NCBI GenBank assembly: GCA_045837725.1
Contig: JBEWZL010000049.1
Span: 62,001-126,000, forward strand
DNA length: 64,000 bases
Direction of reading: 5' to 3'
Source of the DNA: Vermamoeba vermiformis
Taxonomy: Eukaryota
Position numbers and translations under genes: made by a program. Below are positions 23,246-39,122 of this stretch, in pieces. Each line of letters starts with the position of its first letter. The first letter of the stretch is position 1. The notes under the pieces are model-generated. The model worked only from the letters and a program-made list of their open reading frames with translations. It searched no databases and was not told the origin of the DNA.

Positions 23246-25928
23246 ATGTCGCACTTGAGCTCATTCAAGGCATCGACTAGAGACCCTGATGAGGTGTTTC
23301 GTCGGTTGAAAAAAGACCCTGAAAACAACGTAAGCGACATCCGAAAATTTCTTATTATTCCACCAGATCTGTCTAAAAAATATACAATAATATTAATACG
23401 GTATTAATTTATAGTATTGTGCTGAATGTGGAGCTAGCAATCCTCAATGGGCGTCAAGTAATTATTTTTCAAATAATAACAATTTCGTAATGCAATTCTA
23501 ACGGTTATATTGAATTATTACAGCGACCTATGGTATTTATATTTGCTTAAATTGCTCTGGAAAACATAGAAGCTTGGGAACTCATTTGAGGTAATTATTG
23601 GCAGTTGATCCATTTCGTTTTTCGTATTTTTTCAGATTTAATTGAAAAACTTCTTTTAGTACCGTAAGAAGTCTTAATATGGATAGTTGGACCGACACTC
23701 AATTAGCCTTGATGGAAGTAAGTTAATTCATGATTTATTCAAAAATATCAACGACAGATCTAGATCGGAAAACTCGAAAAAATTCATTAAAATCAAACCG
23801 ACGATTTAATAAATACTGTATATTAAAGTATATTATTTAGTACGGAGGAAACAAGAATTACAAAGCATTTATGACCTCTCAAGGCGTCAGCAGCTCAATG
23901 GATCTAACCTCAAAATACAATTTACCAGCAGCCATTATTTATCGCGAAAAATTAAAGACTATTAGTCAGGTAATTATTTCATACGATTTTTCTAGATATG
24001 AGGCAAAAAGGAAAGCTGATCTGCCTCGTCGAATTTCAATGCTTTGATTACAAATCTAAATTTCCTTTTAAGGGCAAAGAATGGTCCGAGCCTTCACCGG
24101 AACAAGTTAAAAAATTAATGAGCGGCAATCAAAGCTCGTCGTTGAGGACATCTTCGTCCAACGATTACAAACTGACTTCGGATGTGACCCCGCCTACACG
24201 ACGTACTGCTAATACTGGTTCTAGTGACTATGGGTACGTTACCATATTTAGAAATAATTTTTATTATTATAACGAAGCGCAATGGCACGTGCACGTGTCA
24301 AATTTTTTTTTTGCCGACCAGCAACTTCATTCACAATTTTTATTATATGCAGTATAGTATTATACTGTTGATATTAATATTCATGATCGTCTTAGTGGTC
24401 GCACCATGTCTAGCAGTGGTGGCTATGGTAACGGCGGCTACAACAATGGCGGCGGTTACAACAACAGCAGCTACAACAACAGCAGCTACAACAACGGCGG
24501 ATACAATGGCTCGAGTCAGAGTGGCGGCTACAACAGTTCAGGCTACAATAGCAGCGGAGGGTACAACACTGGTGGCAATTCTAGTGCCGGCAATGTGCCT
24601 CCTGGCGAGCGACGAGGTTTGCAACCCACGACCAACGACAAGTACAAAGTGAGCGTGTCCAGCGATGCTTATTTTGGCAACTCTCCGCAGCCTAAGAGAA
24701 ACACGTAAGTCGATACCGATCTAACGCTTTTCTGGCACGTGTCACAGACCGTGTTTTGAAGTGACACGTGTCAAATTGTATTGCCCGTCATTTCGTTGGC
24801 TGTTCGTTCTTTGTTTGACCAATATTATTTCTAGTAGTGGTCAATCAGATTTCCTCGAAAACAGCATGAATGCGTTGTTCACTGGCTGGAGCAAGTTGTC
24901 TTCGGGCGTTGAAAAACTCGCGCAAACTGCGAAACAAAAAGTTCACGAGCTTCAAATCGACGATAAATTCGAGGTATTTAGTTAACTATATGCTTATTAT
25001 AGTTAAATATAATGAAATCTACGGTGCCACATTGAAGATAAAATTGTTTAATGATGAAATTAGGAGGCTTAATTTATGACTGTCAGTGATCAGAGCATAA
25101 ACCTCCTGAAAACAATTTTATCAGTTTTAGTTTACGGCCGAGACCGACACCACATTACCATATTTGGAAAGTCTGTATTAATATACCGTGTCGCAGGAAT
25201 TGAAGCACAAGGGCATGAGTCTCATCAACTCGACTTTCAACAAGGACGCTCCTGTCCCAGGGTCACCACATCAAAGTCCTCATAGCCGTCATGGCCATGA
25301 TACAGATAGACAATATCACTACCGCGAAGAAGACAGTTCGCTGTTGGATCAGGATTCGCACTTGCATCACAATGAAGATCCGCGACAGCACCAACGAACT
25401 TATCAAAGCAATAGCAGACAAGACGATATTTGGGATAATTGGAGCAGCCAAGGTGCACAACAACAGATGTCTAACAATGGTCACGCTAGATCTGATCCCG
25501 AAAGAGATCAAGAAGATTTAGAAAACTTTTTCGCTAACGATAGCGGCCACAGACAACAAAATACTAAGAAAAATACTACAGTCACTCGCGTAGTCGATGA
25601 CTCTAATTTTATGGGCTTTGACGTCGAAGAAAGGCAACCTACTAAAACCGAATCCGTGAACAAGGAAGAAGATTCGTTCTGGGACGAGTTCGATAAGAAA
25701 GTTACAATGGCTGATAATAGCAAGAGCAGCAATGGTACTAAAGCATCGAATACTAAGCCTCAAGAAGATCTTTGGGACTTTTCTTCAACCGAAACAACAC
25801 CGAAAGAGCAACGCAAAGAGACCTCTGCGTCAGTTCAAAACGGCACTCAGACTGGCAAAGCAGCTGTCAAACAACAAGGCTGGGAAGAGAACTGGGACGA
25901 TTGGGGTGACTGGGAGAAGAAGAAATAG
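23246..25928 (+). CDS. ArfGAP1/Gcs1-like ARF GTPase-activating protein
   Basis: CAECGASNPQWAS...GIYICLNCSGKHRSLG, VRSLNMDSW, GGN motifs, an ALPS-like segment (LFTGWSKLSSG) and Trp/Asp-rich tail motifs. Confidence 0.9.
24410..24580 (+). repeat. Gly/Tyr/Asn/Ser low-complexity coding repeat (GGYN/SSYN)
   Basis: Tandem ggc/agc-tac-aac units such as tacaacaacagcagc within the ArfGAP exon 24396-24704. Confidence 0.8.
25037..25122 (+). ncRNA. Box C/D snoRNA-like fold-back element, copy 2 (in ArfGAP intron, sense to host)
   Basis: Perfect 13-bp terminal stem GATAAAATTGTTT/AAACAATTTTATC, box C at 25051-25057, box D at 25106-25109, candidate D' ATGA and C' GTGATCA. Confidence 0.6.
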
Positions 25929-26005
25929 GGTGTACGTTCAAATTGGAAAATTTTAGTAAACTTAGACTCTTATCAAAAGTCAACTGTTGTCCTTTTTACT
26001 TTGTA

Positions 26006-28193
26006 CTAGACTTTTGTTTGTGTTCTTCTTTTCTTTGTGGCAGGTTCATCAGGGTCGGTACTATCCTCTTCTCTAAGCTTTATCCCCTTTTGTCTGAACA
26101 CATTGCACACTGCTTCCACAATCAGTGGCTACATCAAATGTTAGCAAGATACAGTAAGTCATCTCTTTGTGACAAGTCTTACCTCTGAAATTACATAGTG
26201 AGATGTCCTGCTGTATTTGTGATCAAGTCCATTTGTATTGAAAGTAACTCCAACCAAGCCATCTGCAAACATTGTACTGCCTTCTGTAATGTCTTCCATA
26301 GTTTGCAAATAGTACTGTTTAACTAAATTAGCATAGGCATGCTTCAGTTTGTCAAAGGTGGCATTGATTTTTGTAGCAGGAGTGCACTGTGTACTAATGG
26401 CTTGGTCTAAAGTCTGGCTATTGCATTGAGTTAAATGACAGTACAGGTCATCAACTACTTTCATTAGAATTTCTTCATTGGATTTGCCAGGATTAGTTGA
26501 CTTTTTGTACTGTTCAAGCTGTGCAACAGTGGCCAAGCTAACAATGAATCCAACTCGACCTGTTGAACAGCATGAGCATAGATTGGAAAACAAGTGCCTA
26601 ATTTGTACCTTGTAACTTGTTCAAGATGTTCTGGATATGAGCATCAGATAACTTGACATCAAACAGGTGCTCAACAAGGGCACAACAATCCTCTTTTTTG
26701 GTTATGCATTTAAAGTTAGAATGTTTTTCTCTGCACTTTGTTTCACTGTTTGGCTTTGCAATGTTGGCTCCATCCAACTGTTCAAAGTAGATGATGTCCA
26801 GTGAAGTTCCAGCAACAATGCAGTTTCCATAGCCAACAAATTCTGATACAAGCCTCTGGTACAAGCTTTGATAAACTCCTTTGTGTGACTCAAACATTCC
26901 CTCAGCAATGTGCAGCAGTTCTTGAGCTTCATCACACAGCAAAAATAGAGTTGTCCTATTGAAATCAAGGAACACACTGGTGGTGTCAATAACTGTTTGA
27001 AGTTCTTCCACTGTTTTGAAAACGTTCTTAAGTATTGCTTGAATTGTTCTGCACATGTGTAGTTGTTTCTGATGTACTTGAGACAAAAGCAGTTGTTCAT
27101 TTGTAAGAGCTAGATTCTTCGTCTTCATGATCATTAACAGCACTAATTTGGTGGCAAGTAGCAAGCTGATCTCATACTCAGCTGCATAAATGTCAAAATG
27201 GCCTTTTGCACTCTCAAGTTCTTTAATATTCCTGATAAATATGCCCTCAAGTTCACCTACACAAGAAATTAGTTAGTTTTACCACCAGTAGTGATGCTCA
27301 AACTTGCCTTTTTTGAAGTCAAAATAGACTGACATGTGTTTCCTGCCAATGTCAAACAAAGCCTTAGTTTTGCCAGTGCCAGAAGTGCCAATCAGATAGT
27401 GCAAAGCTGGCCAATGTGAGTTACAGCCTTGCAGAATGTCTTTGACAATCTGTGACTCAGCATTTTCATTGCCTAAATCACCTTTCAACAAGTTCAATTT
27501 GATCTCAGTTGGAGATGTGCCAGGCAAAGGTCTAGTGATCAGGTCATTGTTGTGTATGGAGTATAGTTTGGGCTCTTCAATGTCACAGACTGAAATAGCA
27601 CCAATAAACCAACTGAGAACAGTCTGTGAAGGATGAAGTGGCGTGTTTGGTTTGATATCTGAATAATATAAGCCAAAGACATTAATAATGTTAACTTTGG
27701 TGGAATGATTTGGCTTACTTTTGCGTTCCCAGTCCTTAAACTCCAGCGAAAAATGTGGTACATAAGGCCACTGCAATAGATCGTGCTTCGATAGCTCTTC
27801 AAAAACGTCGTTAATTGGCTTGTACGAATGCAAACACGCGCGAAATGGGTCGAGTACGAGATCCAGGTGCGGTGGATTGGCTGCGAACAATTCTTTTGCG
27901 TTATTATAGTGGCTAAGGTCAACGCTTCTCTTTAATCAGCGTTAATACGTCTTAATAAAGGAGTCATCGTGACGTGCGTAAGTGGCTTCTGGGCGTCCTA
28001 ATGGCCAGCAGACCCATTGCACGAATTGTTGCATTGGTAAAGCCTCAATATCGGTTACTAAATTCGAGTTAATATTTAATATTAATGTCCGAACTATACT
28101 TACTCGTTAGCCATTGTTTACGGAAGTCTGCCGGCCCTAGAATTAATTATTAATTCAAATTGTTGCCAACAATCTTCGCTATTTACCGTCCAT
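26006..28193 (-). CDS. Crinkler(CR)-effector-like P-loop NTPase with SAM-like header, no C-terminal nuclease
   Basis: Walker A GTSGTGKT, Walker B LFLLCDEAQ, IVAGTSL, LQGRVGF, ISEPLIVEA and terminal NLS-like KKRR. About 7 exons, including one GC-AG intron. Confidence 0.65.
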
Positions 28194-28509
28194 TATATTA
28201 TTCAATGCTACTAATGAATAAAGGCAGTATGTTAAATTATTGTGTGCAGTGATGAGACGAATAGCTATCTTAGCTATGGTGCTCGTCTGTTGCAACGAGT
28301 GCAAATAATGCCGCTTTTTTTTTAGCTGAACAATAAGACGTCAGGACAACAAGGCAGTATTAATTCGCATATGGCGTAAAGCAGGTCACGTTCGTCATAT
28401 GTAGATACGTCAGACGGACATCCGTCACAACCGAGATCAACACGGGATGTGGCAATAACAACGGTAATCATCGTTATTTTTAACGTGAATATAATTATCA
28501 GATGTAATT

Positions 28510-29130
28510 TAATGGTGATAATGCGCCGAGATTTGAATTATTCCAAATTTAATTAAAGCAATGCTGATCGGCGTCCTTCCTTCGTTTGTAGCCTCAATAA
28601 CATGGCATCGATATCAAAATTAATATTTATAATGGATATATATTATATTAAGCGCCGATTTTACTAGAATAAAGTAATAATAAATTATAATTACCACCAG
28701 CTGCTTTTTACGACTGCGACTCTAATAAATACGTCAATAATTCGACAAATTAATTTTCTTATTGTTTGTCTACCAGGTTCTCGCGGATGTGCTTCTAAAC
28801 GTAAACAGAACGCGATCTGTTTTGATCCATCAAACACCACCTCGTCCTTCAGGCTGAAGTATTGATCCTTCTTACAGCCCTATGGTGTACGTTCTGTTGT
28901 ATTGAAAGCGCAATTCAGCGTACGTGGCTCCCAAAGAAATTTCGTAGGTACGCCTTATCTTACAAGTAGTTCTTGAAAATGAACAAACGTACACAATAGG
29001 ACCTCGTACGTCAAATCGTTTTGTTGTTGGCTTGTTTGATCGTCGTTCAAGTCCTCGGACAAGCAGTCAATGAAGAAATGGCTGAACTGTGAACTTGATG
29101 TCGACCAGTCGTTCAGCTAGATATCTCAAG
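28510..29130 (-). CDS. Possible small multi-exon hypothetical gene
   Basis: Open exon-like segments (LNDWSTSS...TYEVLL; AVRKDQYFSLKDEVVF...; YRCHVIEATNEGRTP...) with plausible splice sites. The model is not resolved. Confidence 0.3.
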
Positions 29131-29315
29131 TAAGTTACAAAATATTTCAATTGTGCAAACGACCTACAAAAGTAAGGGAAACATACCGTACGTGTAAGTT
29201 AGTAAAAATTGATTTTACGACAAATCAAATTTTCGGCGGCGAATTAATTGGATAAACCGAAATAGTTTCCTCCTTCTTTAAGCCTAATTTTAAGCCAATA
29301 ATTGAACTACATAGC

Positions 29316-30492
29316 ATGTCTTTCGAGGTATTGTAACTTTTTTTGCGCAACAGGCGAATTCAGATCGTTGACAGCAGTTTAAACTTACAACAAAATACGA
29401 TAATCAAACTATTTTTATGCCTATTTACGGTTTTGATATTAGCCTATATTCCTGCGAGAGGCAGATAAAACGCTGGATCCTGAGACTGAGGAATTGACTT
29501 TTCACGGTAAGAACTAAAATGTAATTTCCAAATTATTAATTTTAATCCAATATAGAGTCTCCTAGTAAGGCCACGCTCAAAGCTCTCGGCAAATTTTTAC
29601 AAAACCAGATGTGTCACTTGAGTGTACTCCACTTACGCAGCTCCAGCGTAAAAGACGATTTGACAATTATAGCTAGTAAAATCTCGAAAAATAACGAATC
29701 GTTGGATGTACTAGACCTCAGCGGAAGTGGTAAGATTAAACTTTCAACCAAGATCTGACACCAATCCTTTTGTTAGGAAACATGCTTTATCCACGTAGCT
29801 TAGAAAGTTTCGTCAAGCGGTGTACTCAATTAGCGGAGCTTAATTTGAGCGGTAAGCGGCTTTCTATTCAATTGAATCAAGGGAGGAAATTCCGGCTTTG
29901 GGGATCCCCAAAAATTATTCAATAATAACGAATTATTTAGGCAATGATTTGACCGAATTCTGGAACGCATCTTCGACAACCTTACCAATAGTCTCACGCT
30001 TTACTCGATTGAGTTTAAACAGTACGTTTAGTTGCCTACGATCCGCTACTTGATCCTAACCGAACCTCTGACTAGACTGCAAGAATTTAGCCAATTGCTT
30101 TCAAGTACTTTCAAAATGTTCGCAGCTTCAAAGTTTAGAAATGGAAGGTACGTTAATTAACAAGTGCCAAGCCAGTATTAATATCGTAAATAGATAATTC
30201 AATTCGCAACGCTGAATATAATTCCGTGCTCGATTTTGTTCGAACAAATACCACACTTACTCATCTAAATATTAGAGGTAAAGACTTGGCAATCGTAATT
30301 GAATCATAGTAATTTTTTTGACCAGATAACCGCATCGAATTTTCGGATTCCGCGATTGACCTAATTAAACAAAATACAACGCTGACGGAGCTCGTTATCA
30401 CTTCAAAACGGTCTAAAAGTTCGAAAGCGAATATTGCCAGCGATTATTTCTCGGAACAACTGTTCAAAATTTTGAAAAGAAATAGGACTTAG
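29316..30492 (+). CDS. RI-like LRR protein (may continue into the coiled-coil ORF ending 30868)
   Basis: Roughly one LRR per exon: LDVLDLSG, LAELNLSGN, LQSLEMEDN, LTHLNIRDN, NTTLTEL. TAG at 30490-30492. Confidence 0.7.
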
Positions 30493-31646
30493 ATCTGCCC
30501 AGTTTTCATTCATACCTAGCGCTGCAGCTGAACTAGATATGCTAAGTACTAGTGCAAGTCCTATTAACAGTTGTGCCTCCCTGGACTTAAAAGAAAGTGA
30601 AGCAAATTCGAGGGAGTCGCCGTTACAATTTGGAGAACGAACGAAATTAGCGGCGGAAAACGAACAATTGAAGCTAGAATTAGAGCGTATCAAAAGAGAA
30701 AATATCATGCTCAAACAGGAAACAGCCGTCATAGCGCCATTAATCCAGCAAGTCAAAGATCTCAAAGAAGAATTGTCGCGCTCGTCACAAAAGCTGCTCG
30801 AGTTGGAAAAAAGTCACAAAATAGTTCAAAATCAGTTTAATAACCAACTGCACAAAGTCACAAATTAGTCAAAATGAGTGTTTGACGAAAGTTTGACCAA
30901 TTGTAAACGTTTTTGTTGTTTCGTTACCTAAGATTAAATTTAAATCGAAACCCTCAGCGTGCATCAAAGCAGTAATGATATCCTATAACGTCGATTTCTT
31001 ATGTCGAAGATGAGCAACGGTAAGAGTAGATCTTTAAGTTGGTGCGCAAGTTTACGTATCAAAAAATCTCGTAAACTAAGAATCTCTTTGAATAAAATTT
31101 CAATTATTTATAAGGCTCGTAGCTTAATTTTGAGATTAAAGTAGTAATGAAATTCGATGAATTTTATATTTTAATTGAAAATTATTTTATTAATTCTGCA
31201 ATAGGAACTCCGACGCTGTCTGCCGATATAAACATTATTGAATCTGATTTTAAGAACGCAGAAAATATTATTGCCGCTCTATCAATAAGCAACGCGGATC
31301 TGAGTGCGTGTCCTGTTTGCAAGTCTTTAGCACCCAAAAAGAACGACCATTATTATTGTCCAATATGCAACGAGGTCAGTATTATCACATTTCCTATTAT
31401 TCGAACATTTAAATAATACTGTCATGAAGAATTCGTCAGTAAAATCGTTGGAAGTGAAGGTACTTTACGCTGAAGATGATTCGATTATTAAATGGCTCGG
31501 ACAATTCTTAGAAAATAATGGAATATTAAATGATCTGGCGCTAACGTGGCAATCTTCAACGGAAGATCCACAACTGACGAACATTTTCTCAGCTGGGTTG
31601 AGATCTTGCTGCAACTTGACAAAACTATCGATATGTGACATGACAG

Positions 31647-31893
31647 TGTCATAGATCCATGACTTTAATTAATCTCTACTCCTCGCTGGTTGCACGACTC
31701 CTTGGTGCTCTACTCCTTGGTGTTGGCTCTCCGCGTGGCTTGGTCAATCCGCCTGGATTATTCCGCTCTTTAACCTAATATGGAAATACGTATAAAATAT
31801 AAATATCTTGTACTTACGCTATTCACTCGGTTCAATAAATACAATACATACGAACACAGCTCTTTAAATCACTTATTTATTTGTTCTATTACA
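31647..31893 (+). repeat. 5' LTR
   Basis: TGTCATAGA...TCTATTACA imperfect terminal inverted repeat, identical to 37429-37675. Contains three ACTCCT units, a TATA-like TATAAA and AATAAA. Confidence 0.97.
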
Positions 31894-31895
31894 TT

Positions 31896-31906
31896 TGGCG
31901 ACACCT
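31896..31906 (+). promoter_or_regulatory. Primer-binding site TGGCGACACCT
   Basis: TGG begins 2 nt after the 5' LTR. It is complementary to a tRNA ending ...AGGTGTCG-CCA; the isoacceptor is not determined. Confidence 0.75.
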
Positions 31907-31933
31907 ACTCAACGAATCTGCATCTCATCCGTT

Positions 31934-33478
31934 ATGGCCGACGACATCTCTGCAGCTGCTAATGAAGCTATCCGTACTAGACATGGACTCAACTCTAGAC
32001 GCAAGAGTGGTATGGATTTATTTGTTGAACCCCAGAGATCCAAGATCGGTTCTCGATCCGAAATCTCTGATACCCCCGAAAAGCCGGAGGAAAGTTTCCA
32101 ATATGGAGACGCCTCTGACGAAGAGCAATTTGACCTGGACGACTTAACTGTGAATCAAGTCGTAACCGAACTGGAAAAATCTGCTCCGAGGGTCACTTTG
32201 ACCAATGACGCTGGACGCGGCAAGGCTCCTATCGCTGCCGCGAACAACAACAACGGTCAAGGCCGACAAGCTGTCGCTGCTGGTGGTGGTGACGGTGGGG
32301 ATGGTGACGACGACGCTGATGACAGCGACGACGAACACCACGATGCTGAAGGCAACAATCCTCCGCCCAACCCCAACGGTGGTGCTCCTAATCCCGGCGC
32401 TCCTGGTGGCAATCCCAACAACGGTGCTCCTGGTGGCAATGGCGCGCCTGGCAACAATCTCCCTGGTGGTGGCAATGAAGAATTGGTCGTCTCTTTCCAA
32501 CGCTTCGTCAATGTCATCACTGAGCGATTTGACTTGGAAAATCGCAACCAACGACGTCAGCAAGAGCGCGAAGCCAAGAAATTGCAAAAGTTTTCGATTC
32601 CTGGTGACATTCTCGTATTCAAAGGCGAGGAGTGGGATCCCGAAAGTCCTACTAAGAAAATTGTTACCGTCGAAGACTACTTGGATCGAATTCATCGCTG
32701 CGCTTCAATGGGCAACTGGAACTCGAACCATGTTCGCTACGTACTCTTGGCAAAGCTTGAAGGTGCTGCGAAGGATCACATCGAATGTTTGGCTCCCGTT
32801 CATCGCTCAAGTGTCAAGAACATCGTCAAAGCTCTCGTTCTACGCTATGGTTCTTCACCCGAAGCTCAAGCCTATCATCTGCGCGAAGCCAGTACTAGTA
32901 AGCAACAACTTGGTGAGCGTGGCACTGCGTTCCTTGAGCGTGTGTTACCTCACTATCGAAGAGTGCAACTTGATGAGCGAACAAAGCTCACCATTCTTCG
33001 TGGCTCTTTGGCTTTTGAATACGCTGAAGAGATTCGCCGTCGGAAAATTACTTCCTTCGACGATGCGTTGATTACTATTGCTGACTTCGATCGCGCCCTG
33101 GATCAACATCGTGCTATCACTCGCATTCCTGCTCCTGCTACGAAGACTCCTGGCAACACTGTCAACGCTGTTCAATTCGACTCGCTCAACGCTGGTGTCA
33201 TGGACCAAGTCACTAAAAATCGCGACGAAATCAAACAAATCAACGACAAATTGGACTCAATCGCTGAAGCTCTTCGCACTGAGAACAAATCAAAGAAATG
33301 GTGCAAGTTTCACAAGACAACGAAGCATGACAACTCCGAGTGCTTCGCTCAGAAGAAAAACAAAAAGAAGAAATTCAACAAAAACGACAACAAATTAATC
33401 AAAAACCTTCAATCGTCAATCAATTCGATCGCTGAACAAATGAAGAAAATCAACGAAACCGAAATTGCAAAAAAATAA
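31934..33478 (+). CDS. gag: Gag
   Basis: ATG at 31934, G/N/P-rich spacer, capsid-like region (WNSNHVRYVLLAKLEGAAKD; KQQLGERGTAFLERV) and variant zinc knuckle WCKFHKTTKHDNSEC. Confidence 0.9.
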   Translation: MADDISAAANEAIRTRHGLNSRRKSGMDLFVEPQRSKIGSRSEISDTPEKPEESFQYGDASDEEQFDLDDLTVNQVVTELEKSAPRVTLTNDAGRGKAPIAAANNNNGQGRQAVAAGGGDGGDGDDDADDSDDEHHDAEGNNPPPNPNGGAPNPGAPGGNPNNGAPGGNGAPGNNLPGGGNEELVVSFQRFVNVITERFDLENRNQRRQQEREAKKLQKFSIPGDILVFKGEEWDPESPTKKIVTVEDYLDRIHRCASMGNWNSNHVRYVLLAKLEGAAKDHIECLAPVHRSSVKNIVKALVLRYGSSPEAQAYHLREASTSKQQLGERGTAFLERVLPHYRRVQLDERTKLTILRGSLAFEYAEEIRRRKITSFDDALITIADFDRALDQHRAITRIPAPATKTPGNTVNAVQFDSLNAGVMDQVTKNRDEIKQINDKLDSIAEALRTENKSKKWCKFHKTTKHDNSECFAQKKNKKKKFNKNDNKLIKNLQSSINSIAEQMKKINETEIAKK

Positions 33479-33513
33479 TGCACAGCACTGACGCAGGCTC
33501 TGTTAGTGTTGTG
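33469..33513 (+). promoter_or_regulatory. -1 programmed ribosomal frameshift signal (gag-pol)
   Basis: Slippery heptamer A AAA AAA, 5-nt spacer TAATG, then a 12-bp stem CACAGCACTGAC/GTTAGTGTTGTG. Pol is in the -1 frame. Confidence 0.75.
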
Positions 33514-36500
33514 GCATCAATCAACAAAGAGTCTACAACTAAATCTACGTCCGAAACCGAAAAGAAGGCCCGCGCTACTCCGTGCTACGCTCCTGCTATC
33601 TTGAATGGAAAAGAAGTCCTCGTCATGATCGACACTGGCGCCTCTGCAACACTTATCAACTCTCCAATGGCCATTAACATCTTGGGTAAAGGCTTTAAAA
33701 TGAAGCCTTACAATGACGGTCCTCTCGCCGGCGTCACAAATCAATCACTGAAAATTCTCGGAGTTACTCCAATCGAATTGACGTTTGCCGGCCTTCGGGT
33801 CACTCGTCAATTTGTCATCGCTGAAGGCCTTAATACTGATGTCATCTTTGGTAACGACACTCTTCTGGATCTGGAGCTCTCAGTCAGTTTCTACAAACGA
33901 CGCATCAAGTCTCGACATGGTAGAGTACCAATGACCTGTACAACCCAGGACGGACTGCTATTCCAACGGCAACGTCTTGCTTGTCCAGTGGATCTAGAAT
34001 TGCCGCCTAGATCTGGTACGCACTTCGGTGTGAACGTCAATGTGGCTCCGGGTACTACTATCACTTTCGCGCCGAACGAAGAAGTGCTTCAGGAGACCAG
34101 CATACGCGTAGCTGGCACTCTTGATATCGTATCAACTGACGGATTAATTATGGTCAACGTGGTGAATCCAACAATTTTTCCGATCACGTTAGAGAAAGGA
34201 AGAATACTCGGATCCGTCGAACCCATATTGCAATACGACTTCATCAATAATATTCAAGAACAAGCAAAAGATAAGCAACTTAAGGAATTAACGGAAGAAG
34301 AATTTCTCGCGCAATTCGACTTCGATCTCGATCTAACTGCGCAGCAGATCGAAGAGTTGAAACAAATACTTCTGGATTTTCGCGACAGATTTATCAACAA
34401 AATAGAACGCATAGAAGGTCTACAAACAAACGTCTATCACTCCATCATCACAAATCCAAACGAGATCGTGCAAAAACAACCTTACTCTTATGGCCCTGCT
34501 CAACGCGCAATTATCGACAAAGAAATCGACGAAATGGAAGCTGCTGGTATTATTCAACGCTCCTCTTCACCCTGGGCATCGCCTGTCGTACTCGTCAAAA
34601 AGAAGGATGGATCTACTCGTTTCTGCATCGACTATCGCGCTCTCAACAAAATCACTCGACGTGATATGTATCCGCTTCCACGCCTGGATCACACTATTGA
34701 TTCGCTGGTGGGAAATTACTATTTTTCGACAATGGATTGCGTCTCCGGTTATTGGCAAATTTTAATGAACCCGCTGGATGTGCCCAAAACTGCTTTCGTC
34801 ACTCACCGTGGTCTTCACGAATTCAAAGTAATGCCTTTTGGTTTGGTCAACGCCCCTATGACTTTTCAACGCTCAATGGATATGATTCTAAGTGGTTTGA
34901 AGTACGAGATCTGCCTCGTTTATTTGGACGATATTATTGTCTTTGGTAAAACTTGGGAAGAACACTGCGTTAATTTGCGAACGGTTCTCACCCGTTTGCG
35001 CGACGCTGGTATTTATCTCAAGCCGAAGAAATGTCACTTTGCGAAAAAATCAATCACTTTTCTTGGACACGTCATCTCGTCAGAAGGTGCTGCCGCAACT
35101 CCCGACAAAATCAAGGCCGTTCAACAGTTCCCGACGCCTCAGAACCCCGATGACGTTCGCTCATACCTTGGCTTGGTTGGTTTTTATCGACACTTCATCA
35201 AAAACATGGCTGAAATCGCACAACCGCTCAACGCGCTACTGAAAGAAAATATAACTTGGAAATGGACAGAAGTCGAAGACAACGCGTTCAACAAACTCAA
35301 AGAAGCGCTTACTACCGCTCCCGTGCTTGGCTTACCCGATTATTCTCAGAATTTCATCCTCACTACTGATGCTTCGAACAAAGGTATTGGTGGCATCTTA
35401 TCGCAATTCCAGAATGGCAAAGAACGCGTAATTGGCTACTATTCGCGCAAGCTCAACAGCGCCGAAAAGAATTACCCTATCACGGAAAAAGAAGCTCTCG
35501 CTATGGTCAAGTCTATTCAACACTTTCGCCCGTATCTCTATGGTCGACGTTTCACGCTTGTCACGGATCATCAAGCCCTGGTCTATCTGCATTCGAACAA
35601 GGCTCCCACTGGTCGCTTAGCAAGATGGCAAAATTCGCTTATGGATTACGACTTTGACGTAATATACCGCCGTGGTTCCCAAAATGGTAATGCGGATGCA
35701 CTCTCCAGATATCCGCTCTCGACAATTTCCTCAGTTACGCAACAAGCTTTTTGGACAAAAGAAGAAATGGAGAAAGCACAACAGAACGACGAATCGATAA
35801 GTTTCCTCTACGACTATTTTCTACATGGAGATCTACCAAAAGACAATCTCAAACGATTTATCGCGCTTACTCATCGCAACGAATTCTTAATAGACAATGG
35901 ACTTCTCTATCGACTCCGCCATAATCAATTTATTCAAGAAACAACTCGACAACTGGTGGTCCCGAAGGAATTTCGCAAGCAAGTTTTGGATCAAGCTCAC
36001 AGCTCGCCTCTCGCCGCGCACTTTGGATTCAACAAGACTTACTACCGCCTACGTGAACACTTCTACTGGCCCAACATGATGCGAGACACGAACGAATATA
36101 TTTCCGCCTGTGCCTCGTGTGGTGCTCGTAAAATTACTCCGCTCAAGCCGATCGGCGATCTGCAGTCGTACGATCCGCGAGAGCCATTCGACATCATCTC
36201 AATCGACTTGGTTGGTCCTCTCCCGAAGACTAAAAATGGCTACAAATACATTCTGGTTATTCAAGACTTATTTAGCAAGTGGGTGGAAGCGTTTCCGCTT
36301 AAATCGAAGAAATCTCACTACATCGCGTCAAGACTCATCAAGGACATCGTCTGCCGGTTTGGTTCCCCTCGACAAATCCTCTCTGATCGCGGTACGGAAT
36401 TTCTGAATCAGATCGTCGCAGAAATTTGCAAAGTTATTGGATCAGTTAAAATTTTCACTGCTCCTTATCACCCGCAAGCTGATGGACAGGTCGAACGCTT

Positions 36501-37416
36501 CAACAAAACGCTTCAAGATGGTCTCTATCACTACGTCAACGATAACTCCGACAATTGGGACGAATTTATTCCGCACGTGCTCTTCGCCTACAGAATAACG
36601 GCTCAGACTTCAACGAAAGTATCGCCCTTCGAAATACTCTTTGGAAGAATCGCTCGCACTCCGCTCCTCAACGGAATTATTGACCCATCACGCGATCTAC
36701 ATCTCGACATGTCAAGTTACGTCGCTGAGATCTCTGCCAGATTTCTACAAGCCTACGAACTCGTCAAGGACAACATCACCAACTCACAATCACGCATGGC
36801 CTACTACTACAACATGAATCGACGCGACTACGAATTTAAAGTTGGCGACTACGTGTGGCATCGAAATTTCACCGCTGGAAAACTCGAAGAGAAATGGTTT
36901 GGCCCGTATATCATCACGAAGAAACTCTCGGATCTCAACTACAAGATTCAAGACCCTGCTCGTAAGAAGAAAGCTAAAGTGGTTAACGTCAATCAGATCA
37001 AACTCTTCACTTCTCGTTTCGAAATGGACCCTGACGCCCGCGACAAAGAAGAAGAAAAGAACAACGCTACGCCTATCAACAAGCCCGTCACTCCCAAAGT
37101 AACGAAAGAAGATTCTCCGTCTGAAATTTCTCCGCCTGCTCGATCCAACGATCAACTCACTCAACTTGGTTTACTACTACTTCAACTTCGCCGTACTTTC
37201 GAAGACACTCTCAACTATGGCATCACTGCTATCAAACGACAACTCTCGGAATTACTCTGCGTCGGATCAATTTACATCAAGTCATCGCGCCTCAACGAAA
37301 AGTTTAAACGTCAACTCTCTCAGCTCAAGACTCGCCCCGACATCCTGCTTTTCCTACAACGCATCACGTCAAACTTCAACACGGAATTTCAAGAAGAACT
37401 GCAACGCTCGTCTTAA
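33478..37416 (+). CDS. pol: Pol polyprotein (protease, RT, RNase H, integrase)
   Basis: IDTGA protease, SPWASPVVLV...YLDD RT, TDAS...TDH RNase H, HHCC plus D-D-35-E integrase and GPY motif. Confidence 0.98.
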   Translation: MHSTDAGSVSVVASINKESTTKSTSETEKKARATPCYAPAILNGKEVLVMIDTGASATLINSPMAINILGKGFKMKPYNDGPLAGVTNQSLKILGVTPIELTFAGLRVTRQFVIAEGLNTDVIFGNDTLLDLELSVSFYKRRIKSRHGRVPMTCTTQDGLLFQRQRLACPVDLELPPRSGTHFGVNVNVAPGTTITFAPNEEVLQETSIRVAGTLDIVSTDGLIMVNVVNPTIFPITLEKGRILGSVEPILQYDFINNIQEQAKDKQLKELTEEEFLAQFDFDLDLTAQQIEELKQILLDFRDRFINKIERIEGLQTNVYHSIITNPNEIVQKQPYSYGPAQRAIIDKEIDEMEAAGIIQRSSSPWASPVVLVKKKDGSTRFCIDYRALNKITRRDMYPLPRLDHTIDSLVGNYYFSTMDCVSGYWQILMNPLDVPKTAFVTHRGLHEFKVMPFGLVNAPMTFQRSMDMILSGLKYEICLVYLDDIIVFGKTWEEHCVNLRTVLTRLRDAGIYLKPKKCHFAKKSITFLGHVISSEGAAATPDKIKAVQQFPTPQNPDDVRSYLGLVGFYRHFIKNMAEIAQPLNALLKENITWKWTEVEDNAFNKLKEALTTAPVLGLPDYSQNFILTTDASNKGIGGILSQFQNGKERVIGYYSRKLNSAEKNYPITEKEALAMVKSIQHFRPYLYGRRFTLVTDHQALVYLHSNKAPTGRLARWQNSLMDYDFDVIYRRGSQNGNADALSRYPLSTISSVTQQAFWTKEEMEKAQQNDESISFLYDYFLHGDLPKDNLKRFIALTHRNEFLIDNGLLYRLRHNQFIQETTRQLVVPKEFRKQVLDQAHSSPLAAHFGFNKTYYRLREHFYWPNMMRDTNEYISACASCGARKITPLKPIGDLQSYDPREPFDIISIDLVGPLPKTKNGYKYILVIQDLFSKWVEAFPLKSKKSHYIASRLIKDIVCRFGSPRQILSDRGTEFLNQIVAEICKVIGSVKIFTAPYHPQADGQVERFNKTLQDGLYHYVNDNSDNWDEFIPHVLFAYRITAQTSTKVSPFEILFGRIARTPLLNGIIDPSRDLHLDMSSYVAEISARFLQAYELVKDNITNSQSRMAYYYNMNRRDYEFKVGDYVWHRNFTAGKLEEKWFGPYIITKKLSDLNYKIQDPARKKKAKVVNVNQIKLFTSRFEMDPDARDKEEEKNNATPINKPVTPKVTKEDSPSEISPPARSNDQLTQLGLLLLQLRRTFEDTLNYGITAIKRQLSELLCVGSIYIKSSRLNEKFKRQLSQLKTRPDILLFLQRITSNFNTEFQEELQRSS

Positions 37417-37428
37417 AGGGGAGGGAAG
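37415..37428 (+). promoter_or_regulatory. Polypurine tract
   Basis: AAAGGGGAGGGAAG abuts the 3' LTR. Confidence 0.9.
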
Positions 37429-37675
37429 TGTCATAGATCCATGACTTTAATTAATCTCTACTCCTCGCTGGTTGCACGACTCCTTGGTGCTCTACTCCTT
37501 GGTGTTGGCTCTCCGCGTGGCTTGGTCAATCCGCCTGGATTATTCCGCTCTTTAACCTAATATGGAAATACGTATAAAATATAAATATCTTGTACTTACG
37601 CTATTCACTCGGTTCAATAAATACAATACATACGAACACAGCTCTTTAAATCACTTATTTATTTGTTCTATTACA
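37429..37675 (+). repeat. 3' LTR
   Basis: Identical to the 5' LTR by visual comparison. Confidence 0.97.
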
Positions 37676-39122
37676 ACAGTAGTAAAAGGGGCTGGTCAAT
37701 TATTTGGAGAAGCTATTCGATCGCTAATCAACTTGCAATCGCTGTATTTTACTCGGGTGAAGGTGCATCCGGATGAAGTTCAGTATTTATCAGATGGCTT
37801 GAAAGCAAACAAATCGATTCAAAAACTCATGTTATATGACTGTGCTGAATCGTGGTGCATATTGAACGGCTTTTTCGAAGAAAACAAATCTATACAAGTG
37901 CTGTCATTTTCCGAACATTCACCTGGAATTTCCACGATCAACAATTCACTCGATGGATTAAAATATACTAAGACATTGAAAGAGTTGCATATAGACTCCG
38001 ATTATCCATTCAATCGGACAGCTATAACAAGTTTGGCGGAAGGTCTTAGATCCAACAGTTCGATAACTAGCTTGCACCTCGTAGCCAAGATCAATAATGA
38101 AGTGTTAGAAATATTATGTGATGCATTGAAAGATAATAAGATTGTTCGGACATTGAATCTGGCGGGCAATGAATACACATCCGTTCCTGCAACAATTTTC
38201 CAGATCAGCTCGTTAACGGACCTGATGTTAGGAGAACCAGAGCACCCGATCTCAGAGGGATTTACAAAAGAATTCGGCGAGGCGCTACGACGCAATAAAA
38301 GCCTTAAAAGGCTATCTTTGCAAGTCTCATCGAACGACGGATGCAGAGCAATAGCAGACGGACTGAAAGGAAATGATACGCTATATCAACTAATATTATT
38401 ATTGCATAATGTGGATGACGCATCTATTCGGTATTATGGTTCAGTTTTGGAGACACATCCGAGTATCGAGAATCTTATGACTGGTGACTATGCCTGTCAA
38501 GGCTCTATAATTGGAACGATGGTTGATATTATTAAGAAAAATACTAAATTGGAATGCATTGCAGTGATTGGCCAGTACAACGACAATATCGACAGGTTCG
38601 TGGATGCACTCAAAGAAAATAACACGTTAAAATCCCTTGAAGTAAGCATAACCGATGATATGCCCCTGATTATATACCGCGAAGAACAATTTATACCCTT
38701 ATTTGAAGTCAATTATTCCTTGATCCATTTGGGCTTTTTCGGCGCTCCTGTTGAAAAATACTTAATGCGGAATAGAATCTTTCAGCAAGAAATGTACGAG
38801 AATACTATGGTTGTGATACATAGTATAGCACGAGATTCGTCGATGATAGCTTTGATCCCGCCTGAGATCTGGATCAACGTGTTTAAGTACTTACGTTATC
38901 CTGGCTTAAAGTCATTCGAATCTATTGCACGCAAAATATTTGACAAATACAAATAAATAAATTGTCGAAAGGATGTAGTACTCGATCACCGAAAATGTTC
39001 TTCTTCCAGATCGATTTCCAGGATCGAAGTATCCGCGAGGGTTTACCTGTTAGTAGATTCGCAGCGTAACGGACAAGTGTCTTCTAAACTTTCGTTTATT
39101 ATGCAAATGAATACTAGTCCTA

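Follow-up and report, generated by a model that had tools for sequence, protein, structure and literature searches.

Within a 64-kb stretch of contig JBEWZL010000049.1, deposited as Vermamoeba vermiformis and called the window here, 1706 bp that cover most of a single gene have lost nearly all of their CpG dinucleotides and carry an excess of TG and CA. The gene encodes an orphan P-loop nucleoside triphosphatase (NTPase), and its 5′ end has kept its CpG sites. The explanation that we favor, though not strongly, is that long-term CpG methylation limited to the NTPase gene body acted in place, sparing the first 300-450 bp, and that deamination of 5-methylcytosine (5mC) then erased the CpG sites. 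The depleted segment, the spared DNA beside it and the gene are placed as follows, o/e being the ratio of observed to expected dinucleotide counts:

25936..27641, no strand: CpG-decay island, 1706 bp, 4 CpG, CpG o/e 0.06, TG/CA o/e 1.57
27724..28114, minus strand: CpG-rich 5′ end of the NTPase gene and the DNA upstream of it, spared as judged from CpG counts
26006..28034, minus strand: orphan P-loop NTPase gene, candidate ATG 28034-28032, stop codon TAG 26008-26006, read from the sequence without RNA support

The island is bordered by the CpGs at 25935 and 27642, with 1706 bp between them. A first-pass annotation of this DNA had counted by hand about 4 CpG in ~1.7 kb and named their positions, and the recount agrees exactly: within 25940-27640 CpG occurs at 26056, 26556, 27023 and 27120 and nowhere else. 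All four are exonic, and the three predicted introns (154 nt) and the 3′ untranslated region (3′UTR) after the stop codon hold none, which bears out its statement that introns are affected as well as exons. When 579 windows of the same size from the 64-kb stretch are taken as background (CpG o/e mean 1.14, standard deviation 0.14, minimum 0.86; 1.12 for the window as a whole), the island lies far outside their range (z = -7.6), well under the background minimum. The abundance of TG/CA that had been remarked on is equally real, with an o/e of 1.57 against 1.05 +/- 0.07 in the background (z = +7.2), and the remaining dinucleotides are unremarkable (|z| <= 2.3), so that CG and TG/CA are the sole outliers. 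The three longest CpG-free gaps of the window (522, 500 and 467 bp) all fall inside the island, and the fourth longest is 150 bp. The Poisson probability of finding 4 or fewer CpG is 2e-26 with an expectation of 73 from the present base composition, and 4e-31 with an expectation of 85 from the background density. The CpG depletion of the island is confirmed as real and is far beyond chance.

The missing CpG sites can be accounted for by the excess of TG and CA. Reversion of 90-100 TG/CA dinucleotides to CG gives a CpG o/e of 1.13-1.22, a TG/CA o/e of 1.04-1.09 and a GC content of 0.44-0.45, which brings all three to local background values simultaneously. TG and CA are nearly equal in number in the island (163 and 155, 318 together), as expected if both strands were affected alike. 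Every NCG context has been erased (two-strand counts against expectation: ACG 3/47, CCG 1/27, GCG 0/37, TCG 4/58) and all four NTG contexts are over-represented, so the loss is independent of the flanking base; a CpG methyltransferase followed by deamination predicts both of these properties. The TG/CA excess is ~102 against ~81 lost CpG sites, so that the decay products have been retained, and we estimate the extent of CpG decay from the counts as ln(85/4) ~ 3. By our own estimate, the TG/CA products would be retained at a ratio of CpG to other mutation rates of ~12 or above, a value that ordinary 5mC hypermutability supplies; such hypermutability can account for the island provided that the methylated state lasted for ~0.2 neutral substitutions per site. 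TA is scarce (o/e 0.56) and CA is in excess. The introns of the neighboring ArfGAP gene, which are of the same build as those in the island (GTAA donor, CTAAC branch, ~50-66 nt), do carry CpG. The footprint thus reads as that of CpG methylation and subsequent deamination, and not as one that is trinucleotide-specific or directed at CpA in the manner of repeat-induced point mutation (RIP). The first-pass annotation had proposed deamination of 5mC, and the mass balance, the strand symmetry, the sequence context and the coverage of non-coding DNA all fit that proposal; methylation itself is the part that we infer.

Both edges of the island are sharp, about 100 bp wide. On the 3′ side of the gene CpG counts per 100 bp from 25800 on are 5, 1, 1, 0 and 0, and on the 5′ side the counts in bins starting at 27400 to 27900 are 0, 0, 1, 4, 11 and 7. 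The 5′ edge (27642-27724) lies within exon 1, between 310 and 390 bp past the candidate ATG (28034), and beyond this edge the 5′ end of the NTPase gene holds 22 CpG in 27700-27999 and the DNA upstream has an o/e of 1.6. At its other end the island spans the NTPase 3′ end and starts 8 bp past the stop codon of a convergent gene:

23246..25928, plus strand: ArfGAP gene, convergent, expressed and spliced, not CpG-depleted; ArfGap Pfam matches on three small exons, spliced RNA contigs and reads

Between the ArfGAP stop codon (25926-25928) and that of the NTPase gene on the opposite strand the distance is 78 bp, and the 3′UTRs of the two genes probably overlap. Despite these close stops, CpG depletion ends within ~100 bp of the ArfGAP stop codon. 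The CpG-rich surroundings that had been described are indeed found in ArfGAP, in the NTPase 5′ end and in a nearby retrotransposon (o/e 1.36-1.46; see below). A further idea is that selection acted against CpG in the transcript or the DNA, for example in evasion of a CpG-recognising nuclease or silencing factor. Such selection could produce a near-total depletion (o/e 0.06) while exon open reading frames (ORFs) stay open, but we regard it as highly improbable here, since introns and the 3′UTR are depleted too, the TG/CA excess and the mass balance indicate mutation rather than codon choice, and the 5′ part of the same transcript is CpG-rich.

The assembly is sound at this locus. Run X1 (DNA contigs of the same species) covers the full 5-kb stretch 24500-29500 at a depth of ~500-800 that is continuous over the island and both of its edges. 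A contig matching 25096-25985 bridges the 3′ edge and reaches 50 nt into the island, the 5′ edge is bridged by none among the 20 of 72 contig pieces listed and has continuous depth, and a water-metagenome run from a separate study contains identical pieces from inside the island (26457-26675 and 26781-26969). The first-pass annotation had raised the prospect of a misassembled contaminant, and none is indicated. To an assembly chimera or contaminant segment we give almost no credence: nothing speaks for it positively beyond the 5′ edge left unbridged among those pieces, and against it stand the unbroken depth, the contig over the 3′ edge, the independently recovered identical pieces, a 218-codon ORF that runs across the 5′ edge, and introns of native type.

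Within 24500-29500 the X1 contigs represent two versions of the whole locus that are 2.5-8% apart, one identical to the window (depth ~160) and one diverged by 5-8% (depth ~315-450). Their ratio of ~1:2 includes the flanks, and they therefore represent the locus in its entirety rather than dispersed gene copies; the pattern points to a source that is highly heterozygous, polyploid or of mixed strains. Over the ArfGAP exons the diverged version alone is present among the pieces listed. The diverged version is also CpG-poor: in 26352-26678 none of the 11 differences listed (of 16) creates a CpG, 11 being the number on which site-by-site CpG polarity within the island rests, and 8 of the 29 differences listed in the ArfGAP flank gain or lose one. 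The CpG loss thus predates the divergence of the two versions. The versions differ at 28 positions in 418 bp outside the 5′ edge (27714-28131) and at 38 in 466 bp inside it (26952-27417), similar values on its two sides.

The NTPase gene can be followed through the island as open exons separated by short introns (~49-54 nt, GT..AG, CTAAC-type branch) that are sequence-only models:

27935-27282, minus strand: exon-1 ORF of 218 codons, crossing the island 5′ edge (27642-27724) uninterrupted
27366..27389, minus strand: Walker A GTSGTGKT, read directly, aligned with GVSGVGKT of the metagenome relative P0002 (below)
26922..26948, minus strand: Walker B-like LFLLCDEAQ, CDEAQ invariant in 4/4 aligned relatives
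27232..27282, minus strand: predicted intron 1, 51-nt model, CTAAC branch, 0 CpG
26560..26608, minus strand: predicted intron 2, 49 nt, GT..AG, 0 CpG
26129..26182, minus strand: predicted intron 3, 54 nt, GTAAGA..GCTAAC..TAG, 0 CpG

Alternatives for intron 1 are a 54-nt GT-AG intron and a 51-nt GC-AG intron from 27307 to 27257, and several models keep the frame; the upstream read-through of a close relative, P0138, has an indel at this position. A second ORF of 224 codons contains LFLLCDEAQ; exon 3 comes next, and the last exon, a short one, ends with the TAG at 26008-26006. The reading frame had been called intact, and this is correct for the exons, all of which are open; near the 5′ end, however, two in-frame stops (TAA 27944-27942 and TGA 27938-27936, in the series TAA, CGC, TGA) lie between the candidate ATG at 28034 (MQQFVQW...) and the main ORF, and the start codon is not established. 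Either a hypothetical 36-nt intron (27948-27913) removes both stops or the gene has lost its start. We rejected the open ORF as proof of selection: only ~4 CGA codons are expected per 451, and neutral decay would give no TGA ~13% of the time.

The protein has very few relatives. A phmmer search of 1.84 billion representative proteins with exon 2 gave two matches, a fragment (P0001) that is 90% identical to the exon 2 product and a truncated metagenome ORF (P0002) with 32% identity that has the P-loop and CDEAQ in common with it. At the 90%-clustering level (5.8 billion clusters) only P0138 (86%) and P0001 were found, each on one contig. Exon 1 as query gave no match among longer proteins, the 64-kb window holds no paralogue of the gene, scans of JGI metagenomes with P0002 and then with exon 2 gave 0 relatives, and a scan of IMG/VR with exon 2 gave 0 loci. 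Pfam, PHROGs, PADLOC and NCBIfam contain no significant family for the protein; the best family score was AAA_22 (E = 0.014, 16.2 bits where the cut-off is 27), for P0002 only. A profile search of the PDB gave 0 matches at E <= 10, and an AlphaFold2 model of P0002 made from a 6-row alignment has a pLDDT (predicted local distance difference test) score of 33.4 and an unusable fold. The look-alikes in the Atlas are uncharacterised hypothetical P-loop proteins of Basidiomycota and Mucoromycota (feature scores 0.94-0.91) and also AAA_22/KAP/STAND ATPases. The NTPase resembles AAA_22/KAP/STAND P-loop NTPases in two motifs, GxSGxGKT (Walker A) and hhhCDEAQ (Walker B), and is unlike them in that no Pfam model reaches threshold and the PDB contains no relative. 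The gene is an orphan of low copy number that evolves quickly and is restricted to its lineage.

It had also been described as derived from an effector or a transposon, and this description finds no support in the family searches above. Crinkler (CRN/CR) proteins carry N-terminal headers with LFLAK and HVLVxxP-type motifs; the N-terminal ORFs here have no Pfam match to such a header and only a loose HLDLVLDP string. No viral or transposon homology of the gene was found in IMG/VR, PHROGs or Pfam.

Decay of CpG in coding DNA should leave traces in the protein, and some are present. Exons 1-3 (451 codons) contain 1 CGN and 7 AGR codons; the native ORFs favor CGN for arginine. Arg makes up 2.4% of the NTPase exons, last exon included, against 4.4% of native ORFs (p 0.049), and Cys 2.6% against 0.7% (p 0.0004); a halved Arg and a raised Cys content are predicted by decay of CGN codons, although the numbers are small and the comparison is across unrelated proteins, which makes it weak evidence. 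The window protein has Cys at positions where both close relatives, P0001 and P0138, have His, each residue being one step from CGY, and it has His at a position where P0138 has Arg.

A different origin for the same footprint would be an imported module; the first-pass annotation had itself offered import from a methylated compartment as an alternative. The NTPase body would have been CpG-poor already, in a heavily methylated paralogous compartment of this genome or a foreign CpG-depleted donor, and would have been fused in frame with a 5′ exon part that is native and CpG-rich, through recombination, gene conversion or transfer; the junctions would be the sharp edges seen now. We consider this unlikely, though a serious contender. 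The 5′ edge lies inside an exon and close to the onset of the homology that can be aligned with P0002 (window residues NVFGLYY...), the mass balance is silent on where the decay took place, and the family is as patchy as two matches in 1.84 billion representatives imply. P0002 is a truncated ORF, however, so its homology onset may coincide with the edge trivially, and neither donor nor paralogue was found in the 64-kb window or in the IMG/VR and JGI metagenome scans, the two close relatives being single-contig proteins. The introns of the island are of native architecture, the 3′ edge coincides exactly with the end of the ArfGAP gene, the 3′UTR being inside the island, and any junction must predate the split of the two versions, since they have diverged to a similar extent to either side of the 5′ edge.

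The low copy number also bears on a defence of the RIP type or of the MIP type (methylation induced premeiotically), in which the gene body would have been duplicated and the duplicated segment then subjected to premeiotic, CpG-specific C-to-T hypermutation by an enzyme of the DNA methyltransferase (DNMT) family. Such a process would give sharp edges that are independent of gene structure and near-saturating conversion, and a rapid burst would suit the clean retention of TG/CA products. It is nonetheless quite improbable: no second copy was detected (there is none in the window, and the X1 versions are locus-wide at ~1:2, like alleles or homeologues), and 90% clustering gave only the two close relatives. 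All NCG contexts are erased with no trinucleotide preference. RIP of the Neurospora type prefers CpA->TpA, and the island shows the opposite, with CpA in excess and TpA low. The exon ORFs are intact, and the tentative placement of the organism (below) is amoebozoan, not fungal.

The methylation in place that we favor would have required symmetric CpG methylation that lasted long over one gene body, in a domain from the NTPase 3′ end, at the convergent ArfGAP gene, to ~300-450 bp downstream of the gene start. Spontaneous deamination of 5-methylcytosine would have turned ~80-100 CpG into TpG or CpA on both strands, in exons, introns and 3′UTR alike. The remainder of the window would have been unmethylated, keeping its CpG o/e above 1, and the few hundred bp nearest the transcription start site (TSS) would have been protected. 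Post-TSS nucleosomes are protected from methylation in many eukaryotes. Methylation as the cause, its action in place and a gene that is silent or only conditionally expressed are what we infer from the observations above.

Several considerations weigh against this explanation. Methylation is proposed here from its footprint, and the mass balance would be equally good if the decay took place elsewhere before import; the position of the 5′ edge near the start of P0002 homology would likewise suit a module junction. With its o/e of 0.06 the island goes beyond usual CpG footprints in degree, and it is the single one of its kind in 64 kb. The housekeeping genes of the window are undepleted, and the pattern is therefore not gene-body methylation of the animal or plant type. 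In Acanthamoeba castellanii methylation of silent genes extends over the promoter (PMC12344493, accessible text), whereas here the 5′ 300-450 bp are CpG-rich, and the NTPase gene has no viral or transposable element (TE) homology, unlike typical A. castellanii targets.

A more far-reaching form of the idea, which taken whole we judge unlikely, is that heritable, sharply bounded CpG methylation of ancient date was confined to this single intact gene until ~95% of its CpG had decayed, with the first nucleosomes protected and the rest of the genome unmethylated; the gene would be a poised NTPase of conflict or immunity type whose protein has been reshaped by loss of Arg and gain of Cys. A decay of ~95% would call for some 0.2 neutral substitutions at each site, several-fold the age of the split between haplotypes, and the state could have been carried by, for example, a maintenance-type methyltransferase.

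Elsewhere in the window CpG is over-represented nearly everywhere and reaches an o/e of 1.3-1.6 in AT-rich intergenic DNA, which is unusual; this high CpG o/e makes any methylated patch stand out. The window is eukaryotic in content, with genes for Vms1/ANKZF1, citrate synthase, SLBP and Pol-phi, whose ORFs are all CpG-rich, as are those of ArfGAP. The SLBP domain (histone mRNA hairpin-binding) gene lies at 59485-60396. A citrate-synthase tree groups the sequence with Balamuthia and dictyostelids (96/96 support) and away from animals, Capsaspora, chytrids and plants, and this single-gene tree is the basis of a tentative amoebozoan placement; an Atlas search with Vms1 added no taxonomic resolution. 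The nearby retrotransposon is organized as follows:

31645..37675, plus strand: Ty3-type retrotransposon with long terminal repeats (LTRs), CpG o/e 1.36-1.46, two 249-nt LTRs 100% identical
31868-33478: gag-like ORF of the retrotransposon
33436-37416: pol ORF of the retrotransposon (protease, reverse transcriptase, RNase H, integrase)

Identical LTRs mean that the insertion is very recent and therefore too young to report on methylation decay. The first-pass annotation had set the island against a genome otherwise free of erosion, a contrast that holds within the 64-kb window and draws nothing from the retrotransposon. An ORF of 466 amino acids (37556-38956) starts in the 3′ LTR of the retrotransposon, which ends at 37675, and has weak LRR (E 0.003) and PRANC (E 0.045) matches.

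Two RNA runs touch the locus. Run X7, which carries another organism label, contains spliced ArfGAP contigs identical to the window at a depth of 3-9 and has depth 0 over 26003-29500; X7 consists of contigs, and zero depth in it cannot prove absence of an NTPase transcript, so that this gap is only a hint that the NTPase gene is silent. Run X21 (RNA reads under the same species label) matches the ArfGAP exons only, with 85-95% likeness. It comes from a strain ~10% diverged and is therefore uninformative on NTPase expression or splicing, and its likeness values indicate that the species label covers lineages ~10% apart. The 36-nt segment that the X21 reads carry at the 24654/24836 joint of ArfGAP is a different one.

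How does the island compare with known cases of CpG loss? The CpG o/e footprint has been used to infer which invertebrate genes are methylated, and it explains the CpG depletion of vertebrate genomes; typical low-CpG gene classes are less extreme than 0.06. The underlying principle, that long-term 5mC causes decay of CpG to TpG/CpA, is established (PMC12695648; PMC2580031; accessible text of each). The island shares with the classic footprint the specific loss of CpG, the reciprocal gain of TG/CA, the strand symmetry, the inclusion of coding and non-coding DNA, and the sparing of the TSS-proximal part, and is unlike it in striking one orphan gene and leaving housekeeping genes undepleted. Animal and plant gene-body methylation similarly spares the TSS-proximal region, as here, where the edge is 310-390 bp past the candidate ATG, but its targets are broadly expressed conserved genes rather than an orphan.

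Perhaps the closest relevant system is A. castellanii, for which the accessible text of Sarre et al. 2025 (PMC12344493) gives a global CG methylation (mCG) of 1.3% and 381 highly methylated genes (2.4%), mostly silent. Together with the accessible text of Blais et al. 2025 (PMC12210455), it describes methylation that covers gene body and promoter and is enriched in genes of viral origin. Sparse repressive 5mC islands of this type, on lineage-specific genes that are silent and derived from viruses or TEs, are described for other protists as well. The NTPase island shares with these Acanthamoeba-type 5mC islands a target that is non-conserved, a host that is probably amoebozoan, and surroundings that are mostly CpG-rich; a silent target would be a further likeness if the hint from X7 is right. 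In Acanthamoeba the islands take in promoters, frequently extend over tens of kb and have viral or TE homology (PMC12344493; PMC12210455), whereas the present island is 1.7 kb long, has a spared 5′ end and has no such homology. CpG decay is not reported for protist 5mC islands in the accessible text of either paper, and in the open literature, including the accessible text of PMC11244446, PMC12210455 and PMC12695648 (subscription journals and supplements being outside this scope), we came upon no account of CpG-decay islands limited to one gene in Amoebozoa. Fungal RIP and RIP-like CpG/TCG hypermutation also convert one sharp-edged segment from C to T to near saturation, but differ from the island, where there is no duplicate found, no trinucleotide preference, no depletion of CpA and an intact ORF.

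A plausible candidate reason for the protected 5′ part of the NTPase gene is offered, by analogy, by N6-methyladenine (6mA), which in the accessible text of PMC12695648 is enriched immediately downstream of active transcription starts and in prasinophytes takes the place of 5mC within active genes' first nucleosomes. If our explanation is true, sequence composition alone can reveal long-methylated genes in a protist lineage that lacks methylome data, and so gives a cheap map of past repressive 5mC action. A case as clean as this one, with one gene, ~100-bp edges, near-total decay and an open ORF, could gauge how long a methylated state persists at one locus, and could also locate its borders relative to the transcription start and the extent of methylation-driven protein change. 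The island is not evidence of a new mechanism but an instance, in an unsampled lineage, of a well-known mutational process; measured against the systems above, the process is the known part, and the extreme degree, the restriction to one gene that is still intact and the sparing of its 5′ end are what is unusual.

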